DNA of 64,000 nt from Schmidtea polychroa (Eukaryota), in NCBI GenBank assembly GCA_044892525.1, contig CM097885.1, positions 9,116,001 through 9,180,000 on the forward strand. The letters run 5' to 3'. A program made the position numbers and the translations under genes. The notes below the pieces were generated by a model that was not told the DNA's origin, did not search any database, and was given only the letters and a program-made list of their open reading frames with translations. This document shows, piece by piece, positions 1 to 31,825 of this stretch; position 1 is the stretch's first letter; every line of letters starts with the position of its first letter.

Positions 1-1
1 C

Positions 2-202: not shown

Positions 203-369
203 AAACATATAAATCATGTTTTCAAAAACAAGGATATCAGGTTAAAAACAACTAAAAGTTCCACCAACAACTAGTTATACTCCATCTAAAGAACTTATTA
301 CAGAAAATATTTCTGCAATGAATCTTATTTCGAAAAATCCTAAACCTCTAACCTAAAAGTAAAACAAGT

Positions 370-693
370 AAGAAAGTAAAAGTTGTTAAAAATCATCGGA
401 GTTTCCCGTTTTTTAATACATTGTTAAAGGCACCAAGTATGAAAAGAAACAGTATTTTGCAATCATTTCCAAATTATATTGTCGATATTATACTTAAAGT
501 AGTCAAAGGCAAGATTAAAATCAGTAAATCTAAAAAGCAATTACTGAGTAAAGAAAACCTTTGTTATCATTAGTAAATAATAAAAATCGTCAACAAATGA
601 GAAAAATTATATATAAACAACAAGGGAAATTTATCGGTGCATTGATACCTTTAGCAATATCATTATTAGGTGGAATAATAGGAAGTCGATCAT
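370..693 (+). pseudogene. Small basic Polinton ORF remnant with C-terminal QxGxF-amphipathic segment
   Basis: Hand translation across frameshifts gives ...LLKAPSMKRNSILQSFP...KQQGKFIGALIPLAISLLGGIIGS; lies between ATPase and integrase. Confidence 0.45.
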
Positions 694-756
694 AAACAAT
701 GAGTGCTAATCCTTCATTACCCGACATTAAATTTAATATTAAATCTTCTTGTTGTA

Positions 757-1148
757 ATGGATAAGATTTGGACGAACCCCGAAGACGAAGCCGGTTTTGG
801 TGGAGTCGCAAAAATAAAGAAAAGAGTTCCGAATTCGAAAAAGGAAACCCAGAAGTTTGAACAGTTTGTACAGTTTGAACAAACCAATGCAGAAACGATT
901 TCCAACAAGAGCATATAAAACATGGAATAAATGATTTATGGCAAATGGATTTGATGGAGATGATACCCTATTCGAAAATTAACATTCGGTATAAATATAT
1001 TTTAACATGTATTGACGTATTCAGTTGGTTTGCTCGAGCAATACCAGTCAAGGTCAAAATCTGCAGATGAAATGTCAAAAGCTGTTAATAATTTATTTAA
1101 AAAGGACATCCTAATAACTTGCAAACGGATTTAGGTAATATTATTAAA

Positions 1149-1225
<77 letters not shown>

Positions 1226-1232
1226 GATTATG

Positions 1233-1273
<41 letters not shown>

Positions 1274-1901
1274 AGGTAAAGAATTCTACAACAGTAAAGT
1301 CAAGCAAATCCTCAATAAATTGAATATAAACCATTACTCGGTACATTATCAATACAAAGCTGCTCATGTTGAAAGATTTAAATGAACATTGAGAGATAGA
1401 TTAAAGAAATTCTTTGTACATCAAGGTAATAAAAAATGGATATTGGTTTTACCAAAAATAATAACCAGTTATAATCATTCATCACATCGAGGACTGAATA
1501 GATTAATGCCGATTGATATCACTTCAAAAACATTCTATTCTACAAAACCTGTAAAAATTACAAAACCTAAATATAAAGTAGGTGACCATGTTAGAATTAG
1601 TAAAATTAGTGCATCACCATTTATTAAACATTTCGATACAAATTAGAATGATGAAGTCTTTGTAATTTCAAAAGTAAATACTAGCCAGAGTCCTGTAATG
1701 ATTGTCATCAAAGACAATGATAATAATATTGTACAAGGAAAATTTTATGAGCAAGAATTACAAGTTATTCCTCCTCCAAAAGTATTTAGAATTCAAAAGA
1801 TATTGAAAACTAAAAAGGTCGGCAAGGATAAACAATACTATGTCAAGTGGCATGGATATCAAAACCCATCATGGATATCAAAAAAGGACCTTGTAAAGTG
1901 A
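757..1901 (+). pseudogene. Polinton retroviral-like (rve) integrase with C-terminal chromodomain, disrupted
   Basis: MDKIWTNPEDEAGFGG, WQMDL, CIDVFS, QTDLG-KEF, AHVERF, YNHSSHR, YKVGDHVRIS, GKFYEQELQ, YYVKWHGY..PSWI; several stops and frameshifts plus an (ATT)n insert. Confidence 0.95.
1139..1273 (+). repeat. (ATT)n microsatellite insert flanked by duplicated AGGTAA
   Basis: aggtaa at 1133-1138 and 1274-1279 around an (ATT)n tract. Confidence 0.95.
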
Positions 1902-2482
1902 ATTTTTATACTATTTTACCAAGCAATAGTTGCCCATTAATTCATCCAGATAATCAAGCCAGCAAATTTATGGTCAATCTCCAGAATCCGATTTCTTTAA
2001 ATAGTGACTGAGAAGTTGCACTGCAAGATTTTACATTCGTGTACAACACATTCCTATTTTATAGTCAATGTAAGATTTATTTCAAAAGATCTCATACTGC
2101 TTCCAGCTCAATTTTCAAAAACTTTGGTGTTACTTCATTGACTTTGTCTAAAATTACTGATTATAGAGAAACATATACTCAAGATTTCGAACGTGATAAT
2201 TACTGTGCTACATATATGCAAAGTATTGTTAGAAATCTGGGTTATTTAGATAAAAATTTGAATTGTGGAATAACTCTTGAAGAATTTAAAATCAAATACC
2301 CATTTTTCACATTTGTTTTAGCCCCCGAGTTTGATTTAAATCAGAGTCAACTACCACAAAACGTCAATTTACGACTGGATATAAAGTTTGCAAAGGCCAT
2401 TACAGAACTGGTACATGTTATTATATATGGAGTATTGGAAAATGAAGTTCAAATTACTGCAAATAGAACCGTGCTAGTATAA
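1898..2482 (+). pseudogene. Deletion fusion of minor capsid (penton/PX) N-terminus to major capsid (PY) C-terminus
   Basis: NFYTILPSNS..HPDNQASKFMVNLQNPISLNSD*EVALQD (penton-type start) runs into GITLEEF..YPFFTFVLAP..LRLDIKFAKA..VIIYGVLENEVQITANRTV (Polinton MCP-type end). Confidence 0.8.
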
Positions 2483-2547
2483 ATGTAAACAGAAATATAG
2501 AAATTTGTCATGGAGTTAGTGTTTTTGATACTGTTTAATTTTATTAC

Positions 2548-2895
2548 AGTAGTTCTGTTCAGGTTAATCGAATTGGAAAACAAATATTAGGAAATGAATT
2601 TTTAGGAGTTTTTCCTATCGATAAAATTGCTTATTTGAGCAATAATCAAGCCGTAATCGTCAATACTCATTCGTATCATCTTGGTGGAGAACATTGGATA
2701 GCTATATGTGTGAAACCTAGTGATATATTCGTATTCGATCCTATGGGTTTCTATTATCCTACTTTGTTGATATCTAAACTGCAAACAATTGGGAAAGCTA
2801 TTGTATATAATAAAACTATGTTTCAAAATCCATTGACTCAAACATGCGGTCAACACTGTTTGGCATGGTTGTTGTATAAAAAATTTGATGCTTAA
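2548..2895 (+). pseudogene. Adenain-like (adenoviral C5 family) cysteine protease
   Basis: FLGVFPID, IVNTH..GEHWIA, FDPMG, QNPLTQTCGQHC: catalytic H-D-Q-C present; no clear start codon. Confidence 0.9.
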
Positions 2896-3072
2896 TAAAT
2901 GTATACTGTATCATTTGTTTTTTATTTGTTGACAAAGATATATAATTAATTTAAAAAATATTATTATTATTTGTTAAATATTATTATTTTATGTTTAAAA
3001 TTATTATGTCATACTATTACATGTTCAGTGCATGCACAGTGCAAAGTAACAAAGCACTGAGTAATAAAGGCA

Positions 3073-5276
3073 TTGTATACATTGCCTAAAAATAAATATT
3101 TAGAATTTACTGATTGGAGTAAAACAGTCACTCCTCCGTTTGTTATTTACACCGACTTTGAGGCTATCTTACCTAAAGACACTCGCTACTTTCAACGTCA
3201 TCTGCTTATTTCTGCTGATATGCTTTTTATTAATAATTTTACCGGCGTAAAAATTAATAACTCGTTCACCGGTTTAGATTGCGTCGATCAATTTCTTACT
3301 GAAATTGAAATGATAGGGAAATATATTGTAACACCTTATTATTATAAACATTATCAAAAGAAAATGATAATTACAGATGAACAACAATTAATGTTTGCAA
3401 ACAGCACATCATGTTATTTGTGCAATAAGCCTTCAGTTAGCCCAGTTAAGGACAATGAATATTTTACCGGTCTATATCTTGGTGCCGCTTGTACGGTTTG
3501 TAATCTGTCAAGGCAAATTAGACATATCCTTCCTGTAGTATTTCATAATTTAAAGGGTTATGATCTGCATCATATCTTGAAATTTGGCCTTTCAAAATAT
3601 CATTCATGGAATATAAGCTGTATTCCTTTAACCAGCGAGAAATTTCTTAGTCTTTTTGCTAGGATTGACTCATTAACCGTTAAATTTATAGACTCTTATC
3701 AATTTGTAAGCGAGTTTTTAAATAATGCTGTCAAAACTTTATCATCTTTACCCTTGACCGAATCAGAATTTCAGGGTACAATAATAACTGCAAAGAGATT
3801 TTTTTCTTATGATGCCACAACTTCATTAGAGGTTTTGCATAACACTCGTCAGTTACCTCCTATTTGGAAAGATGTGACTCCCGCTGAATATGAGACAGCT
3901 CAAAGAATTTGGCTTGAAACTTCATTTACTTCACTTTTTGATTACATGATGGATACCGCTTTGCTTTACATAGATATAAATAATTTATATGGTTGGGCTT
4001 TAAGTCAACCATTACCTTGCAGTGACTTTTAATGGGTTACAGATGATAATTTATTAAATAATATAATTGTTGAGTGCACAACGGTAGATTTAGATCTACT
4101 TGATTATGGTTATACCATAGACGTGGATTTAGAAATACCGACGTCAATTCACGACAAACTGGACGATCTTCCCGTTGCCGCTGAAAAGATGTGTGTACCG
4201 GGTTCGAAAATAGAGAAGATGTTGCTTACACACAGCCCCAAGATGAACTACGTTCTTCATTGGAGGCTTCTGCAAATATTTATTAAATTAGGTGTTAAAA
4301 TATCACAAACTCATAGAGCAATTAAATTTAAACAAGATAAAATTTTCAAAAATTATATTAACACAAATACGGTGTTACGAGCAGCGCCGAGAAATAAACT
4401 TGATAAAAATTTTTATAAATTATTAAACAACAGTCTTTTACGGCAAGACAGTTGAAAATCTTAAAAAAACGTATTAATTTACGTCTGTGTAATTCTTCAC
4501 AGAAATTATTAACATTCTGTTCGAAACCAACTTTTCGAAAATCCACGAAAATAGATGATGACCTGATTTCGGTTTTATTGAGGAAGGATTGTATCTGTTT
4601 GAATAGACCTAGTTACATTGCTCAAACTGTACTAGATTTATCCAAACTCAGGATGTACCAGCAGCAGTATGAACAGTTGCAAAAATATCGCGACGAATTC
4701 AACTGCGAAATTAATATTGTTTCTGCGGACAGAGATTCCTTCTTCTTGGCAATTAAACATTGTAGTCTTGACATTCTTTTACCTGCGATGATTAGAGATC
4801 AATTATTAGATACTTCGAATTTTGACCCAAATCATCCTTTATATAGGAGGAACCTTGATTCTGTCATTGGTAAATTCAAAGACGAGAATAAAGGTTTATT
4901 ATATGAAGATTGGGTATTCTTGAGACCTAAATGTTACAGTTTAATGGGTGATGATGAAAGTATGAAGGCTAAGGGACTAACACATCAGTCGTATCTAGAT
5001 TGTTATTTAAACGATAAAATATACACAGTCCCTCAATTTAGAATAACATCGAAAAATCACCAACTTTTTGGTATTAAAAATAATAAAAGAGCCTTGACAT
5101 GTAGAGATGATAAGCGAAATTGGGTGGATAAAATTCAAAGTTTGGCATATGGCCATTATAGGGGAGGTGACACCGATATATTTATAGATTCAACAGAAGC
5201 TGTCTCAGCAGATGATCCAGATGATTTCCATGATCCAGCAGATGATAATTATTTTGGACATGATTATTTTCGATGA
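3073..5276 (+). pseudogene. polB: Protein-primed B-family DNA polymerase, family A, truncated, internally deleted, frameshifted
   Basis: YTDFE, FHNLKGYD, FIDSY, YIDINNLYG, KLLNNSL, DRDS (decayed DTDS), LRPKCY across ORFs 3073-4032, 4123-4455 and 4452-5276. Confidence 0.95.
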
Positions 5277-5570
5277 TGTGGTTAAATTATTTAATAAATG
5301 TATTGATTTTATTGCCTTGAGTTTTTTAGCAGTACCTTTGTGAACAATTTTTTATACATTATATGTGTGTGTGTGTGTAATAATAATATGTTAAAGTTTT
5401 GCCTTGAATATTTTTTAGCAGTACCTTTGTAAGCAGTACCCATAGGGGGACAGAATATCTTGTCGGATAAACTCAGACTATATATAATAATAATAATATT
5501 GCAAAGTATGTGCAAAGTATATGCAATAATTTTTTTCTGTCGACTTTAGCGTCAAAATAAGTATTTAAAA

Positions 5571-6725
5571 AGTAGGTAGTTAGTGGCTTACGGCAGCAAT
5601 AGGGGGGGGGGGGGGGTAAAAATGTTGGAAACTTTTGATTGCATAACTTTTTCCGTAGACATTTTTTGATTACATAATTGTTGCCGTAATGCCCAATGTT
5701 TTCTGGGATTTTAAATACAAAATTTTTTTTTTTTTTTTTTTTTTTTCAATAAACAAGCCAAGGATAAATATTATTTGGGTGGGTCTCCTTGGTCCTGAGA
5801 ATTTCAATAGAAAAAGGTAGTCTTCAATAAAAAAGCATGGATTTTTCACACTATAGTGAGGGGATCTTCTTGGTCATGAGAATTTCAATAGAAAAGGTGG
5901 TTTACATTAAAAAACGCATAGTAAATTTTTAAAATAAAGCAAATTATGGGTCTAAAATTTAAAAATAAAGTAAATGATGGATCTAAAAATTTAAGTAAAT
6001 CAAGGTTCAGATTTATTTTTGAAATAAAGTAAATTATGGTCTAAATAAGTAAATTATGGGCTAAGATTTTTCAATTAAAGTAAATAATGGTTCTAAAAAA
6101 TTAAATTACAGTAAATTATGGTCCAAATTTTTAAATTAAAGTAAATTATGGTTCTTAAAAATTAAATTAAAGTAAATTATGGTCAAAATTTTTGAATTAC
6201 AGTCCAAAAATTTAAATTAAAGTAAATTATGATCCAAATTTTTAAATTAAAGTAAATAATGGTTCTAAAAAATTAAATTAAAGTAAATAATGGTCCAAAT
6301 ATTTTAAATTACAGTAAATAATGGTTCTAAAAATTAAATTACAGTAAATAATGGTCAAAAATTTTAAAATTAAAGTAAATTATGGTTCTAAAAATTAAAT
6401 TAAAGTTAATTAAGGTCCAAATTTTAAAATTAAATAATCAATGGTAAAAAAAATTTAAATTAAAGTTAAATAAGTAAATTAAAGTAATAATTTTTAAATA
6501 AGTAAATTAAAGTAATGTAATAAGTAAATTAAAGTAAGATTTTTAAATTTATTAACAAAAATAGAAGGTGTTTGAGAATTGAAATTTTTTAATGGAAATT
6601 TTAATGAATTATTTTTTAAGTAATTTTTAATAGAAATTTTTATGAATAATTTTCAATGGTAATTTTTAATGGAAATTTTAATAGAATAATTTTTAAGATA
6701 ATTTTTAATGAAAATTTTTATGAAA
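5571..6725 (+). repeat. Polinton family B terminal inverted repeat (5'-AGTAGGTAG end, G-tract, ~30-bp subterminal tandem array)
   Basis: Homologous to the TSD-flanked ends at 59993/62674 and 42434/59320; array of aaagtaaattatggttctaaaaaattaaatt at ~5930-6560. Confidence 0.9.
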
Positions 6726-6726
6726 T

Positions 6727-6794
<68 letters not shown>

Positions 6795-6981
6795 TAATAT
6801 TAATAATATATCAACCAAATACTATACAACACATAAAAAATTAACTAAACACATAAAAATAACTAGGCACATAACAAAACATATAAACATTAACTAAACA
6901 CATAAAAATGAACTAGACACATAACAAACATAAAAATTTACCAAATAACAAATGTAAAGATATAAAATTTATTCAATAAAA

Positions 6982-9900
6982 TTAGTCCTCATCGGACAAA
7001 ATAACGTCATCGATATCGATGTCATCTTCTCCAAAATCTTCATTTAATTCTTCCTCATCTTCTCCATTTTTCTCCAACATTTTCTGAAACATTTTCTGCA
7101 ACAATTTCTCCAACATTTTCTCCAATATTTAATTCACTTAATCTTACATGCCCATATGCAAGACTAGTATTTTTCCCCACCCAAACCCTTTTGTCATCTT
7201 TGTTAGTTAGTGCTATTTTTGTGTTTTTAATTGTAAAAATTTGATGATTTTTGCTTGTTATTTTAGTCTGAGGAACCGAAAAAATCTGGTTAGTGTTATA
7301 ACAATCCAGGTATGACTGATGTTTTATGTCACTACCTTTCAATGTTACACCTTTAGCCTTTTTTGTTTCCTCATCACCCAACAAACTATAACATTTAGGT
7401 CTAAGAAAAACCCGCTCCTTATATTTAAGACCTTTATTCTCGTCTTTGAACTTTCCAATGACTGAATCAAGGTTCTTACTATATAAGGAATGACAACTAT
7501 TGTAATTGGAAGTATCCAATAAATTATCTCGAACCATTGCAGGTAAAAGAACCTCAAGTTTGCAGTTAATGACTTCGAGGAAAAAAGAATCTGTATCACC
7601 TGCAACGATATTAATTTTACAATTAAACTCATTGCGAAATGATTCCAGATCCTTATATTGCAATTCATACATTCTAAGTTTAGATAGATCAAGTACAGAT
7701 TGACCAATGTAACTCGGTCTATCTAAACATATAGAATCGGAATTCAATAGTGCTGCAATTAAATTATCTGCTATTTTAATAGATTTTTTAAAAGTCGGTT
7801 TTGACGAATATTTAACTAATTTACCGGCAGTTGTACAAAGACGAAGATTCATTCTTCTCTTTAAATTTTCAACTGTTTTGCCGTATAAACTATTATTTAG
7901 CAATTTATAATAATTTTTATCTAAGCTATTTACGCTTTTTGATCTTAATTCGGTATTTGTATCTATATATTTTTTAAAAATTGGTGATTGCTTAAATCTT
8001 ACACCCCTATTTACACGTGTTACTTTAACACCAAGTTCCAAATATAATTTTAATAATCTCCAATGAATAACATAATTAGATTTTGGAAGATGAGTTAATA
8101 ATAATTTTTCAACCTTAGACCCAGCAGGTTTCATTTTTTCAGCAGCTACAGGGAAATCATCCAACTTATCATGAAGCTCAGAAGGAATTACAAGATCAAC
8201 TTCAAGTGTGTATCCATAAGACAAAGATTCAAGATTTAAATTCCTACATTCATCCATTATTTTATCAAATCCATCAAGAACCCAACAAAATTCGCCACAA
8301 GGTAATGATTGACTTAAAGCCCAGCCATAAAGATTATTAATATCTATATATAGTAACTCAGTGTTCTCGTCGGTTTTTACGTAATGCTTATTCACAAAAG
8401 TAAGACCGCCTCTTATTCCACCCTCATAAAAGCTAAACATTTCGTTTTCAGTTATGAGTTCAATTGGTTCATTTAAAGACATTAATGCAGAAGACCAAGA
8501 CATGCCTGGAATTCCGAAATAATTCAATGGTTCCAATCTATTGTGAGCAATGGATTTCAACCGAAACTGATGAAAGAAATCAGCCAAAAGAAAACAATCA
8601 AGTTTTAGGTAGATCATCATATAATCTAATAAAGTTACGCAATTAGTTTCTACCCAAATCTCCTGAGCTTTTTCATACTCAAGCTCAGTGACACCCTCCC
8701 AGATTGGTGGTAATTCATAAGTAGTTTGGAGAATATCTAAAGAAGTGGCGAAATTATAAGGGAAGATTCCTTTTTCACTTACTATGGTGCCAGAAAAAGC
8801 AGAATTAGTAAAAGGCAAAGAATTCAAAGTTTTGACTGCTTTAGCCAAAGAATCATTGACAAATTGATACGAATCAATGAATCTTAGGCTAATTTTACCT
8901 AAATGAGCAATCAAAGATATAAATTTTTCCGTAGTTATTGGGATGCACCCTAAATTCCAATTTTTAAATTTATTTAATCCATATTTAAGTATATGGTGCA
9001 TATCGTATCCCTTCAAGTTGTGAAATACGATAGGCAAAATTTTATTTATTTTCCTATTTACGTTACATGTGCTACAAGCTGCACCCATGTATTTCCCCGT
9101 AAAATGATCGTGATCTCTAACAGGATCGACGATAGATTTCATACAAAGATAACAAACAGATGCACTAACAAATTGACGTTGTTCAATTTTTGTTAATTTC
9201 ATCATAGGTTTCCTACCCATTTTATAATAAAAAGGAAGAACCTTATTTAATGCTATATCCTCTATAGCACTTAAAAAACTCTCGACGCAATCTAAACCTA
9301 TGAACTGCTGATAAGATTTAGATCCGTCAAAGTTATTTACAAGTAAAAGACCAGCAGATATTGGCATGTGTCGTTGGAAATGATCATTATCAGAAGGTAA
9401 AATAGCCTCAAAATCTGCATAAACTACAAAAGGAGGAGTTACTGTTTTCGACCAGTCAGTAAACTGTAATAATTTATTTTGAGGGAAGGTGTAAAGAGTT
9501 GTTCCTAATTGATTACGTTTACATAATATTTCATGTTTTTCTAGCGCGTGTTTATTATTAAACCCATTCAAACACCGATGGCACCATAATGAACGTATGC
9601 GTGTAGGACAACTAGTGTTGATATGACAATTCATTAACTTATTTAAATTACTTATAGCAACGTAATGGAAATTGTTTCCTTTATTTAATAATAGTAAATT
9701 AATTACAGTTCCATTTAAAACTTTGGAACGATGTATAATATCTAAATGTGGGTGTTTTAATACGTAATTATCTATTAATTGTTTGTTATTGTCATAAGAA
9801 AAAACGTTAATTATTAAGCCTGGATTTTTGGCCTCGAATTTTCTAATATCTTTTAATTTCATGGGTAAGTCCAATGGATTATATATTAATTCAGATAAAT

Positions 9901-10760
9901 TATAACTGGATGTCCTATTTCTAGCATAACTACTAACCTCATCATATTTTAAAATAGCTAAAATGCTATATAAAAAACATGAATCATCGGTGTTTTTTAT
10001 ATTAATTAAACAATATTTATTTTTTAGATAAGTAGGTGTTTCAATGAAACTCCTACCACTTAATCTACTTAGCCTACTTATCTTTGTTATGGTGAAGTGA
10101 ATTTCTGTTATTTTTTTTTATGATCCAGCTACTTCCTAACTCTGTGATATTACTTATTTTCTCGTTTAGTTCCCTAATGCCTTCGTCAAAAAATGATGCA
10201 GTTAAAGGCTTTGCATAATTTGAGATATTATTAACCTTTATTTCCCCGTCTTTTTCAAATTCGATTGTTATTCCGAATTGAATTTTGACGGAGCCTAATT
10301 CGTTAATAATATCTCGTAATTTTTTTATTAGTTGTTCAGGAAATATTATTTCTTTTATATTTAAGTCGCTTGTATTTAAGCTTAATATTTGATGGGTACC
10401 TCTTAGATCTTTTTGTATTATTGGAACATTTCCACCTATTTGTATTATATTTAATCCATCCCAAGAGTCAAGGGAAATATTATCTAATCCGACCTGGGAT
10501 TCAACAACCAATCCATCATGGGATTCGACAACCAATCCATCATTGGATTCCACAAAAGGCAATCCGACCTGGGATTCAAAAGAAGAAGTATCTAATTTAA
10601 TTTTTTAATTTTTATTATTTTTTTCTATAGTTGAGGGTCTTTTAAAAACACTATCTTTTTTAAAATTAAACCTATCTAAATGATTTTTATGTTTATTATA
10701 AAAAACGCTATATGTTACGGGGTCACTAGTCTTACATACGGGACATATTTTAAAACACAT
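6982..10760 (-). pseudogene. polB: Protein-primed DNA polymerase B, family B, near intact (939-aa open core 7055..9874)
   Basis: Exo motifs YADFE, FHNLKGYD, YLKLD; Pol motifs YIDINNLYG, KLLNNSLYGK, GDTDS; CxxC..DHDH..CxxCN insert; one in-frame stop and two +1 A-run frameshifts separate the N- and C-termini. Confidence 0.95.
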
Positions 10761-11194
10761 TTTGACGCTAAAGTTGACTTATTTAACATTTTCATAATAA
10801 TTTAATAAAAATAATGTGATGAACCCACAAAGTAATATCATTTTTCATCAAATTGCAAAACAGTAATAACGTTTTCATAAAATTGTAACAAAGTAATAAC
10901 ATATTTCAGATAAATTTTCAACAGTTGTAAAATATTTAAGCAAATTGTAACAAGATTAGAAAATATTACAACAAAGTAGTAACATATTTCAGAAAATTTC
11001 AACAAATTTGTAAAATATTTATCAAATTGTAACTAAAATAATAAAAATATTGCAACAAAGTAATAAAATAATAATGGTAATTAAGACAAATCAATACATT
11101 ATTTCGAAGACGGACAACAAATTAAAAAGAATATTGTAACTAAAATAATAAAAATATTGCAACAAAGTAATAAAATAATACAACATTTTAAACT

Positions 11195-11620
11195 CTAGAT
11201 CAATCCATTTTATAGAAAATTAAATTTTATCTATATAATATATGAATAAATATCCAAGGAAATTACGTTAACGTATAATAAATACAAATTTATCGTAAAA
11301 ACATGTGTGTATTACACACAAAACAAGATACATAATTTCTAATCAATCCATTTTATAGAAAATTAAATTTTATCTATATATTATATGAATAAAATCCTAA
11401 GAAAATTACGTTAACTGTATGAAAAATACAAATTTATCATAAAAACATGTGTGTATTACACACAACATACGAGACATAATTTTTAATCAAGCTATTTTAT
11501 AGAAAATTAAATTTTATCTATATAATATATGAATAAAAATCCAAGAAAATTACGTTAACCGCGCGAAAAACTACAAATTTATTGTAAAAACATGTGTGCA
11601 TTACACACAAAGCATCAAAC
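11195..11620. repeat. Three ~145-bp tandem repeats with internal palindromes (mirror at ~12805-13228)
   Basis: Repeated ttttatagaaaattaaattttatctatata...ttacgttaac...aaaaacatgtgtgtattacacaca. Confidence 0.9.
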
Positions 11621-11730
11621 TGAAATTGTAATTGCGCGATGTTGTAGAGAATTAAATTCTGCCTATACATGGTTACACTTAAATCTCGATCAGACATGTG
11701 AAAAGAGACATAAAAGATAAAAAACAGTAG

Positions 11731-12692
11731 AGTAGTATGATGTGGGCTCCCCCGGCCATGTCCCCTCCAGATCACATATACCCCCTCCCCCCCCCCCGGG
11801 AAAAAATTTTATTTTTTTTTTAGAACGATGCCTAATATTTTTAGAACTATTACGTAATCAATGCCTAATATTTTTAGAACGAAGCCTAATATTTTTAGAA
11901 CTATTACGTAATTTTTTTTAAATTAAGTGATCCAGCGGGGACCTACTTTTTTTCTTCCCAAAAGTAATGTTCCCGCCAACAAATTTTATTAACCGATACC
12001 TCATCTTCAAGCTCAGTCCAAGACCTTTCGAATGAGCTATAGGTATCTTATATATCTTTAATAGTTTTAATGTTATTAACAATTGATGACCACCATCTTT
12101 TCAACGTTAAATTATTATTATTTTTCAAAATATTATTAAGTGATCCAGCGGGGACCTACTTTTTTTCATCCCAAAAATTAATGTTCCTGCCAACAGATTT
12201 TATTGACCGATAGCTTATTTTAAAGCTCTGTGCAAGAACTTTCTAATGAGATATAGATTTTTATCATACGATGACTCATCACATTTTTAGAACAAAGACA
12301 ATGACTCATCACATTTTTAGAATGATGTCTAATATTTTAGAATGATGCCTAATATTTTTAGAATGATTACGTCATACTTTTAGAACGAAGCCTAATATTT
12401 TTAGAATGATGCCTAATATTTTTAGAACTATTACGTAATCAATGCCTAATATTTTTAGAACTATTACGTAATTTTTTTAAATTAATTGGTCCAGCGGTGA
12501 CCTACTTTTTTTCTTCCCAAAAGTAATGTTTCCATCATCCGAATTTATTAATCAAACACTTATTTTAAAGCCCAGTGCAAAATCTATATACTGATATATA
12601 AATATTATTATTAACATTATTTTACACACGGGGGGGAGGGGGTATATGTGGCCGAGCGGGCTCCTGGCCGGGCGGGCCCACATCATACTACT
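11731..12692. mobile_element. Putative ~960-bp non-autonomous element with AGTAGT...ACTACT ends forming the palindrome centre
   Basis: agtagtatgatgtgggc / gcccacatcatactact ends; imperfect inner IR (cacatataccccctcccc / ggggagggggtatatgtg); internal direct repeats; similar end at ~63625-63639. Confidence 0.55.
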
Positions 12693-13662
12693 CTACTGTT
12701 TTTTATCTTTTATGTCTCTTTTCACATGTCTGATCGAGATTTAAGTGTAACCATGTATAGGCAGAATTTAATTCTCTACAACATGGCGCAATTACAATTT
12801 CAGTTTGATGCTTTGTGTGTAATGCACACATGTTTTTACAATAAATTTGTAGTTTTTCGCGCGGTTAACGTAATTTTCTTGGATTTTTATTCATATATTA
12901 TATAGATAAAATTTAATTTTCTATAAAATAGCTTGATTAAAAATTATGTCTCGTATGTTGTGTGTAATACACACATGTTTTTATGATAAATTTGTATTTT
13001 TCATACAGTTAACGTAATTTTCTTAGGATTTTATTCATATAATATATAGATAAAATTTAATTTTCTATAAAATGGATTGATTAGAAATTATGTATCTTGT
13101 TTTGTGTGTAATACACACATGTTTTTACGATAAATTTGTATTTATTATACGTTAACGTAATTTCCTTGGATATTTATTCATATATTATATAGATAAAATT
13201 TAATTTTCTATAAAATGGATTGATCTAGAGTTTAAAATGTTGTATTATTTTATTACTTTGTTGCAATATTTTTATTATTTTAGTTACAATATTCTTTTTA
13301 ATTTGTTGTCCGTCTTCGAAATAATGTATTGATTTGTCTTAATTACCATTATTATTTTATTACTTTGTTGCAATATTTTTATTATTTTAGTTACAATTTG
13401 ATAAATATTTTACAAATTTGTTGAAATTTTCTGAAATATGTTACTACTTTGTTGTAATATTTTCTAATCTTGTTACAATTTGCTTAAATATTTTACAACT
13501 GTTGAAAATTTATCTGAAATATGTTATTACTTTGTTACAATTTTATGAAAACGTTATTACTGTTTTGCAATTTGATGAAAAATGATATTACTTTGTGGGT
13601 TCATCACATTATTTTTATTAAATTATTATGAAAATGTTAAATAAGTCAACTTTAGCGTCAAA

Positions 13663-16600
13663 ATGTGTTTTAAAATATGTCCCGTATGTAAGACTAGTGA
13701 CCCCGTAACATATAGCGTTTTTTATAATAAACATAAAAATCATTTAGATAGGTTTAATTTTAAAAAAGATAGTGTTTTTAAAAGACCCTCAACTATAGAA
13801 AAAAATAATAAAAATTAAAAAATTAAATTAGATACTTCTTCTTTTGAATCCCAGGTCGGATTGCCTTTTGTGGAATCCAATGATGGATTGGTTGTCGAAT
13901 CCCATGATGGATTGGTTGTTGAATCCCAGGTCGGATTAGATAATATTTCCCTTGACTCTTGGGATGGATTAAATATAATACAAATAGGTGGAAATGTTCC
14001 AATAATACAAAAAGATCTAAGAGGTACCCATCAAATATTAAGCTTAAATACAAGCGACTTAAATATAAAAGAAATAATATTTCCTGAACAACTAATAAAA
14101 AAATTACGAGATATTATTAACGAATTAGGCTCCGTCAAAATTCAATTCGGAATAACAATCGAATTTGAAAAAGACGGGGAAATAAAGGTTAATAATATCT
14201 CAAATTATGCAAAGCCTTTAACTGCATCATTTTTTGACGAAGGCATTAGGGAACTAAACGAGAAAATAAGTAATATCACAGAGTTAGGAAGTAGCTGGAT
14301 CATAAAAAAAAATAACAGAAATTCACTTCACCATAACAAAGATAAGTAGGCTAAGTAGATTAAGTGGTAGGAGTTTCATTGAAACACCTACTTATCTAAA
14401 ACATAAATATTGTTTAATTAATATAAAAAACACCGATGATTCATGTTTTTTATATAGCATTTTAGCTATTTTAAAATATGATGAGGTTAGTAGTTATGCT
14501 AGAAATAGGACATCCAGTTATAATTTATCTGAATTAATATATAATCCATTGGACTTACCCATGAAATTAAAAGATATTAGAAAATTCGAGGCCAAAAATC
14601 CAGGCTTAATAATTAACGTTTTTTCTTATGACAATAACAAACAATTAATAGATAATTACGTATTAAAACACCCACATTTAGATATTATACATCGTTCCAA
14701 AGTTTTAAATGGAACTGTAATTAATTTACTATTATTAAATAAAGGAAACAATTTCCATTACGTTGCTATAAGTAATTTAAATAAGTTAATGAATTGTCAT
14801 ATCAACACTAGTTGTCCTACACGCATACGTTCATTATGGTGCCATCGGTGTTTGAATGGGTTTAATAATAAACACGCGCTAGAAAAACATGAAATATTAT
14901 GTAAACGTAATCAATTAGGAACAACTCTTTACACCTTCCCTCAAAATAAATTATTACAGTTTACTGACTGGTCGAAAACAGTAACTCCTCCTTTTGTAGT
15001 TTATGCAGATTTTGAGGCTATTTTACCTTCTGATAATGATCATTTCCAACGACACATGCCAATATCTGCTGGTCTTTTACTTGTAAATAACTTTGACGGA
15101 TCTAAATCTTATCAGCAGTTCATAGGTTTAGATTGCGTCGAGAGTTTTTTAAGTGCTATAGAGGATATAGCATTAAATAAGGTTCTTCCTTTTTATTATA
15201 AAATGGGTAGGAAACCTATGATGAAATTAACAAAAATTGAACAACGTCAATTTGTTAGTGCATCTGTTTGTTATCTTTGTATGAAATCTATCGTCGATCC
15301 TGTTAGAGATCACGATCATTTTACGGGGAAATACATGGGTGCAGCTTGTAGCACATGTAACGTAAATAGGAAAATAAATAAAATTTTGCCTATCGTATTT
15401 CACAACTTGAAGGGATACGATATGCACCATATACTTAAATATGGATTAAATAAATTTAAAAATTGGAATTTAGGGTGCATCCCAATAACTACGGAAAAAT
15501 TTATATCTTTGATTGCTCATTTAGGTAAAATTAGCCTAAGATTCATTGATTCGTATCAATTTGTCAATGATTCTTTGGCTAAAGCAGTCAAAACTTTGAA
15601 TTCTTTGCCTTTTACTAATTCTGCTTTTTCTGGCACCATAGTAAGTGAAAAAGGAATCTTCCCTTATAATTTCGCCACTTCTTTAGATATTCTCCAAACT
15701 ACTTATGAATTACCACCAATCTGGGAGGGTGTCACTGAGCTTGAGTATGAAAAAGCTCAGGAGATTTGGGTAGAAACTAATTGCGTAACTTTATTAGATT
15801 ATATGATGATCTACCTAAAACTTGATTGTTTTCTTTTGGCTGATTTCTTTCATCAGTTTCGGTTGAAATCCATTGCTCACAATAGATTGGAACCATTGAA
15901 TTATTTCGGAATTCCAGGCATGTCTTGGTCTTCTGCATTAATGTCTTTAAATGAACCAATTGAACTCATAACTGAAAACGAAATGTTTAGCTTTTATGAG
16001 GGTGGAATAAGAGGCGGTCTTACTTTTGTGAATAAGCATTACGTAAAAACCGACGAGAACACTGAGTTACTATATATAGATATTAATAATCTTTATGGCT
16101 GGGCTTTAAGTCAATCATTACCTTGTGGCGAATTTTGTTGGGTTCTTGATGGATTTGATAAAATAATGGATGAATGTAGGAATTTAAATCTTGAATCTTT
16201 GTCTTATGGATACACACTTGAAGTTGATCTTGTAATTCCTTCTGAGCTTCATGATAAGTTGGATGATTTCCCTGTAGCTGCTGAAAAAATGAAACCTGCT
16301 GGGTCTAAGGTTGAAAAATTATTATTAACTCATCTTCCAAAATCTAATTATGTTATTCATTGGAGATTATTAAAATTATATTTGGAACTTGGTGTTAAAG
16401 TAACACGTGTAAATAGGGGTGTAAGATTTAAGCAATCACCAATTTTTAAAAAATATATAGATACAAATACCGAATTAAGATCAAAAAGCGTAAATAGCTT
16501 AGATAAAAATTATTATAAATTGCTAAATAATAGTTTATACGGCAAAACAGTTGAAAATTTAAAGAGAAGAATGAATCTTCGTCTTTGTACAACTGCCGGT

Positions 16601-17441
16601 AAATTAGTTAAATATTCGTCAAAACCGACTTTTAAAAAATCTATTAAAATAGCAGATAATTTAATTGCAGCACTATTGAATTCCGATTCTATATGTTTAG
16701 ATAGACCGAGTTACATTGGTCAATCTGTACTTGATCTATCTAAACTTAGAATGTATGAATTGCAATATAAGGATCTGGAATCATTTCGCAATGAGTTTAA
16801 TTGTAAAATTAATATCGTTGCAGGTGATACAGATTCTTTTTTCCTCGAAGTCATTAACTGCAAACTTGAGGTTCTTTTACCTGCAATGGTTCGAGATAAT
16901 TTATTGGATACTTCCAATTACAATAGTTGTCATTCCTTATATAGTAAGAACCTTGATTCAGTCATTGGAAAGTTCAAAGACGAGAATAAAGGTCTTAAAT
17001 ATAAGGAGCGGGTTTTTCTTAGACCTAAATGTTATAGTTTGTTGGGTGATGAGGAAACAAAAAAGGCTAAAGGTGTAACATTGAAAGGTAGTGACATAAA
17101 ACATCAGTCATACCTGGATTGTTATAACACTAACCAGATTTTTTCGGTTCCTCAGACTAAAATAACAAGCAAAAATCATCAAATTTTTACAATTAAAAAC
17201 ACAAAAATAGCACTAACTAACAAAGATGACAAAAGGGTTTGGGTGGGGAAAAATACTAGTCTTGCATATGGGCATGTAAGATTAAGTGAATTAAATATTG
17301 GAGAAAATGTTGGAGAAATTGTTGCAGAAAATGTTTCAGAAAATGTTGGAGAAAAATGGAGAAGATGAGGAAGAATTAAATGAAGATTTTGGAGAAGATG
17401 ACATCGATATCGATGACGTTATTTTGTCCGATGAGGACTAA
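13663..17441 (+). pseudogene. polB: Protein-primed DNA polymerase B, family B, mirror copy (939-aa open core 14549..17368)
   Basis: Same 939-aa translation as the left copy; ATG at 13663, TAA at 13816, A9 frameshift near 14304-14312, frameshift near 17355 hiding an acidic tail ending at TAA 17441. Confidence 0.95.
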
Positions 17442-17628
17442 TTTTATTGAATAAATTTTATATCTTTACATTTGTTATTTGGTAAATTTTTATGTTTGTT
17501 ATGTGTCTAGTTCATTTTTATGTGTTTAGTTAATGTTTATATGTTTTGTTATGTGCCTAGTTATTTTTATGTGTTTAGTTAATTTTTTATGTGTTGTATA
17601 GTATTTGGTTGATATATTATTAATATTA

Positions 17629-17693
<65 letters not shown>

Positions 17694-17694
17694 A

Positions 17695-18844
17695 TTTCAT
17701 AAAAATTTTCATTAAAAATTATCTTAAAAATTATTCTATTAAAATTTCCATTAAAAATTACCATTGAAAATTATTCATAAAAATTTCTATTAAAAATTAC
17801 TTAAAAAATAATTCATTAAAATTTCCATTAAAAAATTTCAATTCTCAAACACCTTCTATTTTTGTTAATAAATTTAAAAATCTTACTTTAATTTACTTAT
17901 TACATTACTTTAATTTACTTATTTAAAAATTATTACTTTAATTTACTTATTTAACTTTAATTTAAATTTTTTTTACCATTGATTATTTAATTTTAAAATT
18001 TGGACCTTAATTAACTTTAATTTAATTTTTAGAACCATAATTTACTTTAATTTTAAAATTTTTGACCATTATTTACTGTAATTTAATTTTTAGAACCATT
18101 ATTTACTGTAATTTAAAATATTTGGACCATTATTTACTTTAATTTAATTTTTTAGAACCATTATTTACTTTAATTTAAAAATTTGGATCATAATTTACTT
18201 TAATTTAAATTTTTGGACTGTAATTCAAAAATTTTGACCATAATTTACTTTAATTTAATTTTTAAGAACCATAATTTACTTTAATTTAAAAATTTGGACC
18301 ATAATTTACTGTAATTTAATTTTTTAGAACCATTATTTACTTTAATTGAAAAATCTTAGCCCATAATTTACTTATTTAGACCATAATTTACTTTATTTCA
18401 AAAATAAATCTGAACCTTGATTTACTTAAATTTTTAGATCCATCATTTACTTTATTTTTAAATTTTAGACCCATAATTTGCTTTATTTTAAAAATTTACT
18501 ATGCGTTTTTTAATGTAAACCACCTTTTCTATTGAAATTCTCATGACCAAGAAGATCCCCTCACTATAGTGTGAAAAATCCATGCTTTTTTATTGAAGAC
18601 TACCTTTTTCTATTGAAATTCTCAGGACCAAGGAGACCCACCCAAATAATATTTATCCTTGGCTTGTTTATTGAAAAAAAAAAAAAAAAAAAAAAAATTT
18701 TGTATTTAAAATCCCAGAAAACATTGGGCATTACGGCAACAATTATGTAATCAAAAAATGTCTACGGAAAAAGTTATGCAATCAAAAGTTTGCAACATTT
18801 TTACCCCCCCCCCTATTGCTGCCGTAAGCCACTAACTACCTACT
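17695..18844 (-). repeat. Polinton family B TIR, mirror copy
   Basis: Reverse complement of 5571-6725, ends ctaactacctact. Confidence 0.9.
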
Positions 18845-19138
18845 TTTTAAATACTTATTTTGACGCTAAAGTCGACAGAAAAAAATTATTGCATATACTT
18901 TGCACATACTTTGCAATATTATTATTATTATATATAGTCTGAGTTTATCCGACAAGATATTCTGTCCCCCTATGGGTACTGCTTACAAAGGTACTGCTAA
19001 AAAATATTCAAGGCAAAACTTTAACATATTATTATTACACACACACACACATATAATGTATAAAAAATTGTTCACAAAGGTACTGCTAAAAAACTCAAGG
19101 CAATAAAATCAATACATTTATTAAATAATTTAACCACA

Positions 19139-21342
19139 TCATCGAAAATAATCATGTCCAAAATAATTATCATCTGCTGGATCATGGAAATCATCTGGAT
19201 CATCTGCTGAGACAGCTTCTGTTGAATCTATAAATATATCGGTGTCACCTCCCCTATAATGGCCATATGCCAAACTTTGAATTTTATCCACCCAATTTCG
19301 CTTATCATCTCTACATGTCAAGGCTCTTTTATTATTTTTAATACCAAAAAGTTGGTGATTTTTCGATGTTATTCTAAATTGAGGGACTGTGTATATTTTA
19401 TCGTTTAAATAACAATCTAGATACGACTGATGTGTTAGTCCCTTAGCCTTCATACTTTCATCATCACCCATTAAACTGTAACATTTAGGTCTCAAGAATA
19501 CCCAATCTTCATATAATAAACCTTTATTCTCGTCTTTGAATTTACCAATGACAGAATCAAGGTTCCTCCTATATAAAGGATGATTTGGGTCAAAATTCGA
19601 AGTATCTAATAATTGATCTCTAATCATCGCAGGTAAAAGAATGTCAAGACTACAATGTTTAATTGCCAAGAAGAAGGAATCTCTGTCCGCAGAAACAATA
19701 TTAATTTCGCAGTTGAATTCGTCGCGATATTTTTGCAACTGTTCATACTGCTGCTGGTACATCCTGAGTTTGGATAAATCTAGTACAGTTTGAGCAATGT
19801 AACTAGGTCTATTCAAACAGATACAATCCTTCCTCAATAAAACCGAAATCAGGTCATCATCTATTTTCGTGGATTTTCGAAAAGTTGGTTTCGAACAGAA
19901 TGTTAATAATTTCTGTGAAGAATTACACAGACGTAAATTAATACGTTTTTTTAAGATTTTCAACTGTCTTGCCGTAAAAGACTGTTGTTTAATAATTTAT
20001 AAAAATTTTTATCAAGTTTATTTCTCGGCGCTGCTCGTAACACCGTATTTGTGTTAATATAATTTTTGAAAATTTTATCTTGTTTAAATTTAATTGCTCT
20101 ATGAGTTTGTGATATTTTAACACCTAATTTAATAAATATTTGCAGAAGCCTCCAATGAAGAACGTAGTTCATCTTGGGGCTGTGTGTAAGCAACATCTTC
20201 TCTATTTTCGAACCCGGTACACACATCTTTTCAGCGGCAACGGGAAGATCGTCCAGTTTGTCGTGAATTGACGTCGGTATTTCTAAATCCACGTCTATGG
20301 TATAACCATAATCAAGTAGATCTAAATCTACCGTTGTGCACTCAACAATTATATTATTTAATAAATTATCATCTGTAACCCATTAAAAGTCACTGCAAGG
20401 TAATGGTTGACTTAAAGCCCAACCATATAAATTATTTATATCTATGTAAAGCAAAGCGGTATCCATCATGTAATCAAAAAGTGAAGTAAATGAAGTTTCA
20501 AGCCAAATTCTTTGAGCTGTCTCATATTCAGCGGGAGTCACATCTTTCCAAATAGGAGGTAACTGACGAGTGTTATGCAAAACCTCTAATGAAGTTGTGG
20601 CATCATAAGAAAAAAATCTCTTTGCAGTTATTATTGTACCCTGAAATTCTGATTCGGTCAAGGGTAAAGATGATAAAGTTTTGACAGCATTATTTAAAAA
20701 CTCGCTTACAAATTGATAAGAGTCTATAAATTTAACGGTTAATGAGTCAATCCTAGCAAAAAGACTAAGAAATTTCTCGCTGGTTAAAGGAATACAGCTT
20801 ATATTCCATGAATGATATTTTGAAAGGCCAAATTTCAAGATATGATGCAGATCATAACCCTTTAAATTATGAAATACTACAGGAAGGATATGTCTAATTT
20901 GCCTTGACAGATTACAAACCGTACAAGCGGCACCAAGATATAGACCGGTAAAATATTCATTGTCCTTAACTGGGCTAACTGAAGGCTTATTGCACAAATA
21001 ACATGATGTGCTGTTTGCAAACATTAATTGTTGTTCATCTGTAATTATCATTTTCTTTTGATAATGTTTATAATAATAAGGTGTTACAATATATTTCCCT
21101 ATCATTTCAATTTCAGTAAGAAATTGATCGACGCAATCTAAACCGGTGAACGAGTTATTAATTTTTACGCCGGTAAAATTATTAATAAAAAGCATATCAG
21201 CAGAAATAAGCAGATGACGTTGAAAGTAGCGAGTGTCTTTAGGTAAGATAGCCTCAAAGTCGGTGTAAATAACAAACGGAGGAGTGACTGTTTTACTCCA
21301 ATCAGTAAATTCTAAATATTTATTTTTAGGCAATGTATACAA
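19139..21342 (-). pseudogene. polB: pPolB family A remnant, mirror copy
   Basis: ORFs identical to 3073-5276. Confidence 0.95.
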
Positions 21343-21519
21343 TGCCTTTATTACTCAGTGCTTTGTTACTTTGCACTGTGCATGCACTGAACATGTAATA
21401 GTATGACATAATAATTTTAAACATAAAATAATAATATTTAACAAATAATAATAATATTTTTTAAATTAATTATATATCTTTGTCAACAAATAAAAAACAA
21501 ATGATACAGTATACATTTA

Positions 21520-21867
21520 TTAAGCATCAAATTTTTTATACAACAACCATGCCAAACAGTGTTGACCGCATGTTTGAGTCAATGGATTTTGAAACATAGT
21601 TTTATTATATACAATAGCTTTCCCAATTGTTTGCAGTTTAGATATCAACAAAGTAGGATAATAGAAACCCATAGGATCGAATACGAATATATCACTAGGT
21701 TTCACACATATAGCTATCCAATGTTCTCCACCAAGATGATACGAATGAGTATTGACGATTACGGCTTGATTATTGCTCAAATAAGCAATTTTATCGATAG
21801 GAAAAACTCCTAAAAATTCATTTCCTAATATTTGTTTTCCAATTCGATTAACCTGAACAGAACTACT
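21520..21867 (-). pseudogene. Adenain-like cysteine protease, mirror copy
   Basis: Translation identical to 2635-2895. Confidence 0.9.
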
Positions 21868-21932
21868 GTAATAAAATTAAACAGTATCAAAAACACTAAC
21901 TCCATGACAAATTTCTATATTTCTGTTTACAT

Positions 21933-22517
21933 TTATACTAGCACGGTTCTATTTGCAGTAATTTGAACTTCATTTTCCAATACTCCATATATAATAACAT
22001 GTACCAGTTCTGTAATGGCCTTTGCAAACTTTATATCCAGTCGTAAATTGACGTTTTGTGGTAGTTGACTCTGATTTAAATCAAACTCGGGGGCTAAAAC
22101 AAATGTGAAAAATGGGTATTTGATTTTAAATTCTTCAAGAGTTATTCCACAATTCAAATTTTTATCTAAATAACCCAGATTTCTAACAATACTTTGCATA
22201 TATGTAGCACAGTAATTATCACGTTCGAAATCTTGAGTATATGTTTCTCTATAATCAGTAATTTTAGACAAAGTCAATGAAGTAACACCAAAGTTTTTGA
22301 AAATTGAGCTGGAAGCAGTATGAGATCTTTTGAAATAAATCTTACATTGACTATAAAATAGGAATGTGTTGTACACGAATGTAAAATCTTGCAGTGCAAC
22401 TTCTCAGTCACTATTTAAAGAAATCGGATTCTGGAGATTGACCATAAATTTGCTGGCTTGATTATCTGGATGAATTAATGGGCAACTATTGCTTGGTAAA
22501 ATAGTATAAAAATTCAC
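21933..22517 (-). pseudogene. Penton/major capsid deletion fusion, mirror copy
   Basis: Translation identical to 2039-2482. Confidence 0.8.
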
Positions 22518-23141
22518 TTTACAAGGTCCTTTTTTGATATCCATGATGGGTTTTGATATCCATGCCACTTGACATAGTATTGTTTATCCTTGCCGACCTT
22601 TTTAGTTTTCAATATCTTTTGAATTCTAAATACTTTTGGAGGAGGAATAACTTGTAATTCTTGCTCATAAAATTTTCCTTGTACAATATTATTATCATTG
22701 TCTTTGATGACAATCATTACAGGACTCTGGCTAGTATTTACTTTTGAAATTACAAAGACTTCATCATTCTAATTTGTATCGAAATGTTTAATAAATGGTG
22801 ATGCACTAATTTTACTAATTCTAACATGGTCACCTACTTTATATTTAGGTTTTGTAATTTTTACAGGTTTTGTAGAATAGAATGTTTTTGAAGTGATATC
22901 AATCGGCATTAATCTATTCAGTCCTCGATGTGATGAATGATTATAACTGGTTATTATTTTTGGTAAAACCAATATCCATTTTTTATTACCTTGATGTACA
23001 AAGAATTTCTTTAATCTATCTCTCAATGTTCATTTAAATCTTTCAACATGAGCAGCTTTGTATTGATAATGTACCGAGTAATGGTTTATATTCAATTTAT
23101 TGAGGATTTGCTTGACTTTACTGTTGTAGAATTCTTTACCT

Positions 23142-23191
<50 letters not shown>

Positions 23192-23198
23192 CATAATC

Positions 23199-23272
<74 letters not shown>

Positions 23273-23664
23273 TTTAATAATATTACCTAAATCCGTTTGC
23301 AAGTTATTAGGATGTCCTTTTTAAATAAATTATTAACAGCTTTTGACATTTCATCTGCAGATTTTGACCTTGACTGGTATTGCTCGAGCAAACCAACTGA
23401 ATACGTCAATACATGTTAAAATATATTTATACCGAATGTTAATTTTCGAATAGGGTATCATCTCCATCAAATCCATTTGCCATAAATCATTTATTCCATG
23501 TTTTATATGCTCTTGTTGGAAATCGTTTCTGCATTGGTTTGTTCAAACTGTACAAACTGTTCAAACTTCTGGGTTTCCTTTTTCGAATTCGGAACTCTTT
23601 TCTTTATTTTTGCGACTCCACCAAAACCGGCTTCGTCTTCGGGGTTCGTCCAAATCTTATCCAT
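22514..23664 (-). pseudogene. Polinton chromo-integrase remnant, mirror copy
   Basis: Mirror of 757-1901; the (ATT)n insert is 6 nt longer. Confidence 0.95.
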
Positions 23665-24218
23665 TACAACAAGAAGATTTAATATTAAATTTAATGTCGG
23701 GTAATGAAGGATTAGCACTCATTGTTTATGATCGACTTCCTATTATTCCACCTAATAATGATATTGCTAAAGGTATCAATGCACCGATAAATTTCCCTTG
23801 TTGTTTATATATAATTTTTCTCATTTGTTGACGATTTTTATTATTTACTAATGATAACAAAGGTTTTCTTTACTCAGTAATTGCTTTTTAGATTTACTGA
23901 TTTTAATCTTGCCTTTGACTACTTTAAGTATAATATCGACAATATAATTTGGAAATGATTGCAAAATACTGTTTCTTTTCATACTTGGTGCCTTTAACAA
24001 TGTATTAAAAAACGGGAAACTCCGATGATTTTTAACAACTTTTACTTTCTTACTTGTTTTACTTTTAGGTTAGAGGTTTAGGATTTTTCGAAATAAGATT
24101 CATTGCAGAAATATTTTCTGTAATAAGTTCTTTAGATGGAGTATAACTAGTTGTTGGTGGAACTTTTAGTTGTTTTTAACCTGATATCCTTGTTTTTGAA
24201 AACATGATTTATATGTTT

Positions 24219-31753: not shown

Positions 31754-31825
<72 letters not shown>

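Follow-up and report, generated by a model that had tools for sequence, protein, structure and literature searches.

An inverted repeat with Polinton-type ends at the axis of a palindromic Polinton derivative in Schmidtea polychroa: a probable ancestral fold-back primer

Introduction

How does a long genomic palindrome come to turn around on a small unit without genes, whose two ends resemble those of a mobile element? The question is raised by a window of 64,000 nt from Schmidtea polychroa (the whole stretch of DNA analysed here; GCA_044892525.1, CM097885.1:9,116,001-9,180,000, forward strand). The original prediction for this locus held that a small terminal-inverted-repeat element had nucleated a fold-back. 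There is precedent for such a mechanism: in the parts of the respective sources cited here, the Tetrahymena rDNA palindrome arises by fold-back synthesis from a 42-bp repeat beside a break (PMC3734650), and yeast inversions are attributed to fold-back, flap trimming and fill-in (PMC10622511; PMC10164571).

Results

The unit at the turning point of the palindrome

The arms of the palindrome (1-11793 and 12630-24420) are 99.76% identical, and its outer limit lies past the left window edge. At the turning point an 836-bp spacer separates two 63-bp inverted repeats. The central features are as follows.

11731 to 12692, no strand: non-coding core unit of 962 bp with inward-facing AGTAGT//ACTACT ends (sequence analysis)
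11731 to 11793, plus strand: left inverted-repeat copy (17 perfect positions, 25 with 10 mismatches, 21 perfect)
11794 to 12629, plus strand: 836-bp spacer with three direct modules (starting at 11923, 12136 and 12482), 21-bp repeats and TGACTCATCA words
12630 to 12692, minus strand: right inverted-repeat copy, whose variable segment consists of two 16-bp subunits
11194 to 11611, no strand: 144-bp tandem array at the left arm tip (repeat analysis)
12812 to 13229, no strand: 144-bp tandem array at the right arm tip (repeat analysis)

The predicted AGTAGT-ended unit at the palindrome turn was thus confirmed, and the three 14-mers quoted in the prediction were each found in place, with AGTAGTATGATGTG starting at 11731 on the plus strand and at 12692 on the minus strand. 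Perfect arm identity, which had been claimed up to 11747/12676, is unbroken from 11639 to that point, the difference closest to the palindrome centre being at 11638; over the whole of 1-11747 the claim did not hold, the arms differing by 4 substitutions (1232 in a microsatellite, 5628, 10021 and 11638) and by 4 short indel events, all in simple repeats. Moving inward past 11747/12676, 10 mismatches in 11748-11772 are followed by 21 perfect pairs (11773-11793 with 12630-12650), giving a gap-free repeat with 53 of 63 positions paired. The score of this inward extension (28) was reached by 0 of 5000 shuffles of the inner region, in agreement with the diverged continuation that had been proposed. 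The arms start flush with the outer repeat edge, where both unit ends join identical flank base for base, and the spacer is retained once; identical flush flanks at both ends are what fold-back priming predicts. Folding energies of -61.0 and -63.3 kcal/mol were calculated for the repeat stem, one per strand, and the stem persists when the whole unit is folded to minimum energy.

Within the spacer, the modules, the 21-bp repeats and the TGACTCATCA words all keep a single orientation, and no inverted matches between separate spacer parts were detected at E<0.08. The longest stop-free frame in the unit has 61 codons; pPolB, integrase and a capsid module are absent between its ends, an Rfam scan of 11000-13700 gave no match at E<=1, and a tRNA scan of the window returned none. 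The unit is flanked by CAGTAG and CTACTG, which are inverted copies and not a direct 6-bp target duplication. Since fold-back would erase a target duplication, its absence only lowers the standing of the unit as a member of the Polintons/Mavericks, and the unit is at most a non-autonomous Polinton derivative.

Age of the inverted repeat

The mismatch within the repeat is 16% (10/63), compared with 4 substitutions in 11,747 bp of arms, and both end variants are very deep in four public sequencing runs (see below), which together support the earlier proposal that the inverted repeat is older than the arms. The left copy ends in a C-tract whose length differs among copies, with variants at 11787 in 4 of 4 runs; a G-tract variant at 12630 likewise appears in 4 of 4. 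The mismatches are clustered (p=0.0005) between the perfect outer 17 bp and inner 21 bp, and 7 of the 10 fall within one 16-bp subunit, the second. The two subunits are 13/16 alike in the right copy vs 8/16 in the left copy, and in the second subunit 5 of the 7 differences are places where the right copy has the letter of its first. One templated change may therefore explain much of the divergence, in which case 16% overstates the age of the repeat.

A 13.3-kb palindromic Polinton derivative around the unit

The unit is embedded in a larger element, itself bordered by a decayed Polinton.

5571 to 18844, no strand: palindromic Polinton derivative of 13,274 bp with the unit at its axis (arms 99.66% identical over 6223 columns)
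13669 to 17368, plus strand: protein-primed DNA polymerase B, directed outward from the unit and carrying an endonuclease VII-like insert (longest ATG frame 14561-17368)
7055 to 10754, minus strand: left-arm counterpart of the polymerase in mirror image (ATG frame 7055-9862)
19139 to 23542, minus strand: decayed Polinton outside the 13.3-kb element and within the mirror, with polymerase pieces, adenovirus-type protease, chromodomain and integrase core
879 to 5276, plus strand: mirror copy of the decayed Polinton, with 0 substitutions against the right copy outside one microsatellite

The outer ends of 5571-18844 read AGTAGG...CCTACT and are followed by end-type repeats, so that the element combines Polinton-type outer ends with pPolB. 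Given the AGTAGG termini at 5571 and 18844 beyond the polymerase, together with these end-type repeats, the unit marks the centre of symmetry of a palindromic element of 13,274 bp. The outer ends match those of a 2.7-kb element in the window that has a TATATG duplication (p=0.002). The flanks of 5571-18844, TTAAAA and TTTTAA, are inverted, with no direct 6-bp duplication.

Polymerase homology extends from 13669 to about 17290 and is split over two frames with a switch near 14310, identically in both arms. The closest relatives are metagenome proteins of up to 61% identity. Searches for flanked polymerase relatives returned 0 of 7 candidate stretches in viral contigs and 1 of 64 stretches in metagenome contigs, the latter (26% identity, on a 3752-bp contig) being left out of the analysis. 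An endonuclease VII-like insert lies at 15257-15364 (Pfam PF02945, E=0.0011, under the curated cut-off) and is flagged in many homologs too. Endonuclease VII-like nucleases cut branched DNA. A search for structural relatives of the insert gave 0 at E<=1, and we accordingly claim no flap-trimming role for it; an HNH insert in pPolB is already described in the part of the source cited here (10.1101/2023.08.22.554363).

The mirror goes on for at least 5570 bp outside 5571-18844, through the decayed Polinton (window 1-5570 and 18845-24420), with 0 substitutions apart from one microsatellite. The inner arms carry 3 substitutions in 6177 bp vs 0-1 in 5570 bp of the outer mirror, a comparison (p=0.15-0.35) that does not separate one event from two. 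We read the outer mirror as a later, separate event, either a second fold-back via the 6.2-kb arms or an assembly error, and by our own estimate the chance that the outer 5.6 kb are such an error is about one in three. Just beyond the mirrored part of the decayed Polinton, at 24955-25458 on the minus strand, lies a MATH/TRAF-domain frame (152 aa from ATG, Pfam E=1e-21), possibly Polinton cargo.

Relatives of the unit and of its ends in the window

The hexamer AGTAGT occurs 23 times on the plus strand and 21 times on the minus strand of the window and so has little meaning by itself. In vertebrates, (AGT)2//(ACT)2 is the commonest Maverick end motif (PMC8097293), and the 63-bp repeat falls within the Maverick terminal repeat lengths of 46-1447 bp given in the same source and under the 100-1500 bp given for Polintons (10.1101/2023.08.22.554363), as far as the cited parts of both extend. 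Three further features of the window bear on the unit.

62900 to 63639, minus strand: related end, with AGTAGTAGGATGTG at 63639 and repeat words common with the spacer (inner limit approximate)
42434 to 59320, no strand: gene-less comparison palindrome of 16.9 kb with AGTAGG ends and TATATA on either side
59993 to 62674, no strand: comparison derivative of 2.7 kb, flanked by a direct TATATG duplication and containing a 3' piece of polymerase

The end at 63639, where AGTAGTAGGATGTG starts on the minus strand, had been taken as unrelated to the unit. The two proved to be related: nucleotides 7-45 of the 63639 end resemble the left end of the unit (shuffle p=0.002; right end p=0.082), and all occurrences of TGACTCATCA in the window lie either in the unit (two) or behind 63639 (four). 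A partner end for 63639 with a matching 6-bp flank was not found in the window. Modules common to the unit spacer and to the DNA behind 63639 also occur at 39065-40052, with no AGTAGT end of that type. The unit ends show a weak likeness to the end at 33824 (p=0.014 and 0.028; 21 pairs tested, uncorrected) and no detectable relation to the AGTAGG ends past six letters (p=0.35-1.0). No autonomous element carrying a unit-type end was found in the window.

Neither comparison element carries the AGTAGT unit: the centre of 42434-59320 holds a hAT remnant instead, and none lies within 59993-62674, so that an AGTAGT-type core is present in 1 of the 3 mirror-type AGTAG-ended elements of the window, a small sample. 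The hAT remnant (50287-51137, in the spacer of the 16.9-kb palindrome) has short inverted ends with TATATAGC on both sides. The 2.7-kb element has inverted ends of about 840 bp and a polymerase 3' part 93% identical to 16650-17317, and we read it as a copy-back or deletion derivative.

Several other observations concern the remainder of the window. Positions 27400-33824 hold a relative of the gene-less palindrome that has a single arm (matching 45104-47657 at 72-84%) and a third end type, AGTAGTTTGGATG, at 33824 on the minus strand, with no partner end in the window. A short common module recurs at 18900-19010, 28255-28340, 39765-39850 and 49114-49190 (behind the decayed polymerase and in gene-less arms). 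A Tc1/mariner-type transposase frame lies at 40334-41158 (DDE_3, E=4e-18), and a weak integrase zinc-binding match at 26900-27390 (E=0.006) is probably an LTR-retrotransposon scrap.

Copy level in public sequencing runs

Sixteen public runs contain part of 11612-14600, and six contain at least half of its words. Contigs of four runs (two studies), the best matching of which may be the source sample, were placed on this stretch at 85% likeness, and eight runs with a small share (0.06-0.18) were left out. Between 5314 and 81149 contigs were placed per run, covering 30 of 30 bins in all four, and summed depth at 11787, 12630 and 13912-14600, which is not a copy number, exceeded the median depth of each run's listed contigs by a factor of 148 to 4144. 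Both unit end variants and, equally, the arms reach very high depth in the four runs, indicating that the end variants are family features and not products of the 11731-12692 locus. The ratio of arm-tip to repeat bins was 0.82 and 1.34 in the two runs (one study) closest to the window and 3.2 and 3.5 in the other pair, which belongs to the second study, suggesting that most arm copies in the latter may be without the unit core.

Read depth continues across the unit boundaries, and no loose ends at 11730/11731 or 12692/12693 were seen among the 24 of 2461 rows listed, which is a hint only, as short overlaps may escape placement. Among the 32 of 94,664 contig pieces listed, five with 13-22 differences track the arm and stop at 12688, five letters (AGTAG) inside the unit; judged by the length of their records, two of these continue for 129 and 47 letters unlike the unit and three end within 10 letters. 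Diverged arm copies therefore share the start of a Polinton-type end at their tip. Two further pieces of the 32 stop at 12701, with 171 other letters beyond. No piece among those listed crosses from the arm into the end-specific segment, so that we infer a palindrome at family level rather than see it, and a second full arm-unit-arm copy was absent from the same pieces. Sequence past a loose end at 12621 gave no window match at 3 mismatches, and the unit-end pattern was found in 0 stretches of viral and metagenome contigs, from both of which Schmidtea polychroa may be absent. Among the 15 of 224 joints listed, 11735 to 12829 and 11735 to 13229 came from one contig each in one run (sides 27 / 21). 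Joints known from one contig with short sides are often spurious, and these two could be noise or turns without the unit; if the latter, the arm tip may fold back without the 63-bp repeat.

A proposed ancestral fold-back and its alternatives

The explanation that we favour, tentatively, is that the family arose in an ancestor through fold-back, with a Polinton 3' end as the primer, and that the core has been inherited since. The unit would be what is left of a member of the AGTAGT-ended family to which 63639 belongs, a miniature derivative free of genes but with a Polinton-type end on either side. It would first have lain within an AGTAGG-ended Polinton, on the upstream side of its polymerase gene. 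A break would have exposed a 3' end on one strand, at one of the ACTACT ends or past it, and this single strand would have paired with the inverted copy 836 nt off. A polymerase would then have extended the paired 3' end, copying the arm to the AGTAGG terminus. The product of events in this order would be the 13.3-kb palindrome 5571-18844 with two usable ends; the palindrome would afterwards have dispersed with the unit carried along as an inherited core, expected in most copies.

Protein-primed replicons displace long single strands, for which panhandle formation has been put forward (PMC11886824), and a Polinton would thus offer a fold-back substrate without a chromosome break. According to the cited parts of the yeast work, fold-back of single-stranded DNA tolerates 25% divergence and spacers of up to 30 kb with 320-bp Alu repeats (PMC10164571), a precedent set by repeats of 320 bp as against the 63 bp here, and inverted duplications are primed by an imperfect repeat of 11 bp lying close to a break (PMC10622511). 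Several findings speak against the favoured explanation, among them the tip-to-repeat ratios of the second study, the absence of a second full copy from the pieces listed and the two possible unit-free joints. Both mismatches of the yeast 11-bp repeat were corrected after fold-back in the account cited (PMC10622511), whereas 10 mismatches persist here, and 5571-18844 lacks a direct target duplication.

The closest competitor, which we regard as unlikely, is the form in which the mechanism was originally envisaged: a free, dispersed mini-Polinton inserted here, was cut at one end by a Polinton integrase and, through a single fold-back, gave rise to the whole palindrome of at least 24 kb. Geometry and energetics fit it equally well, the related 63639 end with its different flank shows that this end type moves, and a single event agrees with the arm divergence (p=0.15-0.35) and is simpler than two. 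The spacer is also at least as deep as the arms, as free copies would give, but modules common to other repeats explain that depth as well. Much of the original idea of a nucleating terminal-inverted-repeat element stands, namely the older repeat, the Maverick motif, the flush arms, the stable stem and, within the sources cited, the yeast precedent. The part that is not supported is a free dispersed element acting at this locus: there is no target duplication at the unit, no stand-alone copy was found in viral or metagenome contigs (perhaps without Schmidtea polychroa), depth is continuous with no boundary loose end among the 24 of 2461 rows listed, AGTAG is already present at the tip of diverged arm copies, 63639 has no partner end in the window, and two of the three mirror-type elements lack such a core. 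The feature is real, the fold-back mechanism is plausible and probably ancestral, and the status of the unit as a free element is unproven.

That the repeat marks a boundary rather than an origin seems improbable to us. The unit would have landed in the spacer of an older copy-back palindrome, and later arm-to-arm copying, as in panhandle repair, would have halted at the heterology of the unit. The other two mirror-type elements of the window do turn without such a unit, the hAT insertion with TATATAGC on both sides in the 16.9-kb palindrome indicates that spacers gather passengers, two contigs hint at unit-free centres with the same tip, and panhandles are invoked for homology restoration in protein-primed replicons in the cited part of that work (PMC11886824). 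Against this, both flanks must be erased exactly to the unit ends, which again needs pairing in the register of the repeat, and each unit-free joint comes from one contig with short sides, a class that is often spurious.

Decidedly improbable, in our judgement, is that the inward ends are a working self-priming origin, in which a polymerase-only linear half of 7.1 kb (11731-18844 or 5571-12692), with one AGTAGG and one AGTAGT end, regenerates the palindrome in each cycle, its 3' ACTACT end folding onto the internal inverted copy to yield a 13.3-kb product with two integrase-ready ends. Each half with the core does start and finish with an AGTAG-type terminus, the mismatches of the repeat cluster (p=0.0005) between perfectly paired outer 17 bp and inner 21 bp, and AGTAG is retained at the tip of diverged copies. 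Repeated cycling ought, however, to remove the 10 mismatches, neither a free nor an integrated 7.1-kb form was seen, inner and outer ends are not detectably related past six letters (p=0.35-1.0), and the adjacent palindromes do without such an origin.

It is very improbable that the full mirror, inner arms included, is an artefact created during assembly or library preparation by reads that fold back at the repeat: the arms are near-perfect and no single read was shown across both junctions, but the inner arms differ at 3 non-repeat positions, the right-arm letter at 14402 is missing from three runs and leaves in the fourth 818 out of a depth of 1,162,884, which weakly suggests a change that is real and private, and the window has mirror-type elements with clean duplications. 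A literature search on fold-back assembly artefacts found no paper.

Some other candidates were rejected. Flip-flop isomers of one terminal hairpin do not agree with variable segments that are not reverse complements, and insertion exactly midway in a perfect palindrome would have left a direct 6-mer complementary to itself, and none is seen here. A head-to-head junction of two Polintons, or a circle junction, does not fit unit ends that face inward. True ends five bases inward with a TA duplication would fit the point at which five contigs lose arm homology, but they are disfavoured, because the AGTAGTA of the unit recurs at 63639 beside another flank.

Discussion

The unit at 11731-12692 probably once primed the fold-back that made the mirror element, and it looks like the inherited core of a many-copy family. 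As in the Tetrahymena rDNA palindrome and the yeast palindromes built on short repeats, an older short inverted repeat with its spacer kept forms the axis of long arms. The present case differs from both in that the repeat is a Polinton-type end pair of 63 bp, 84% paired and 836 bp apart, that the product resembles a mobile element with its own outer ends and not a chromosome or amplicon, and that the break is a putative one, suggested by the geometry.

MITEs are small non-autonomous elements with terminal inverted repeats, short and non-coding. The unit resembles them in being short and non-coding, with terminal inverted repeats and high-copy sequence; it differs from them in its length of 962 bp, its Polinton-type ends and the lack of a target duplication or of a stand-alone copy. 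As the unit has neither the target duplication nor the genes of a Polinton, we name it a Polinton-derived core, and neither a full member nor an established MITE.

Wang et al. are said to have found in 1991 that an internal repeat can direct the copying of an adenovirus minichromosome end. In adenovirus/PRD1 panhandle repair, as in the fold-back favoured here, displaced single strands pair via inverted repeats under an end-homology model (PMC11886824); in Polintons such panhandles would be putative, and the cited part of that work describes direct panhandle evidence as still lacking.

With Polintons/Mavericks the unit shares its (AGT)2//(ACT)2 ends and its repeat length, and polymerase, protease, integrase core and chromodomain lie nearby. 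Unlike them, it is gene-free, lacks a direct 6-bp duplication and has its ends turned inward at the axis of another element, which has 6.2-kb arms and carries the polymerase twice. In the cited parts of two further reports, butterfly Polintons have gene-bearing terminal repeats of about 2 kb and were amplified after uptake of TE cargo (10.1101/2025.02.07.637071), and inversions at C. elegans eri-6/7 are driven by Polinton ends (10.1101/2024.01.15.575659). Among the literature titles and abstract openings searched, a scope outside which Repbase reports, most subscription journals and supplements fall, no palindromic Polintons centred on internal ends were found. The fold-back mechanism is textbook knowledge and its setting here is new, and neighbouring elements gain the same shape without the core.

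Polinton replication has been deduced from sequence, and single-stranded, end-paired intermediates have been proposed by analogy. A Polinton end pair at the axis of flush mirrored arms would be the footprint of such an intermediate if its 3' end primed synthesis. Should a self-priming origin prove true, it would mean a hairpin-primed life cycle in the Polinton class and a sequence record of a single-stranded intermediate so far only modelled. If the core is instead the trace of one founder accident, it would still explain how a one-ended fragment regained two ends and spread.
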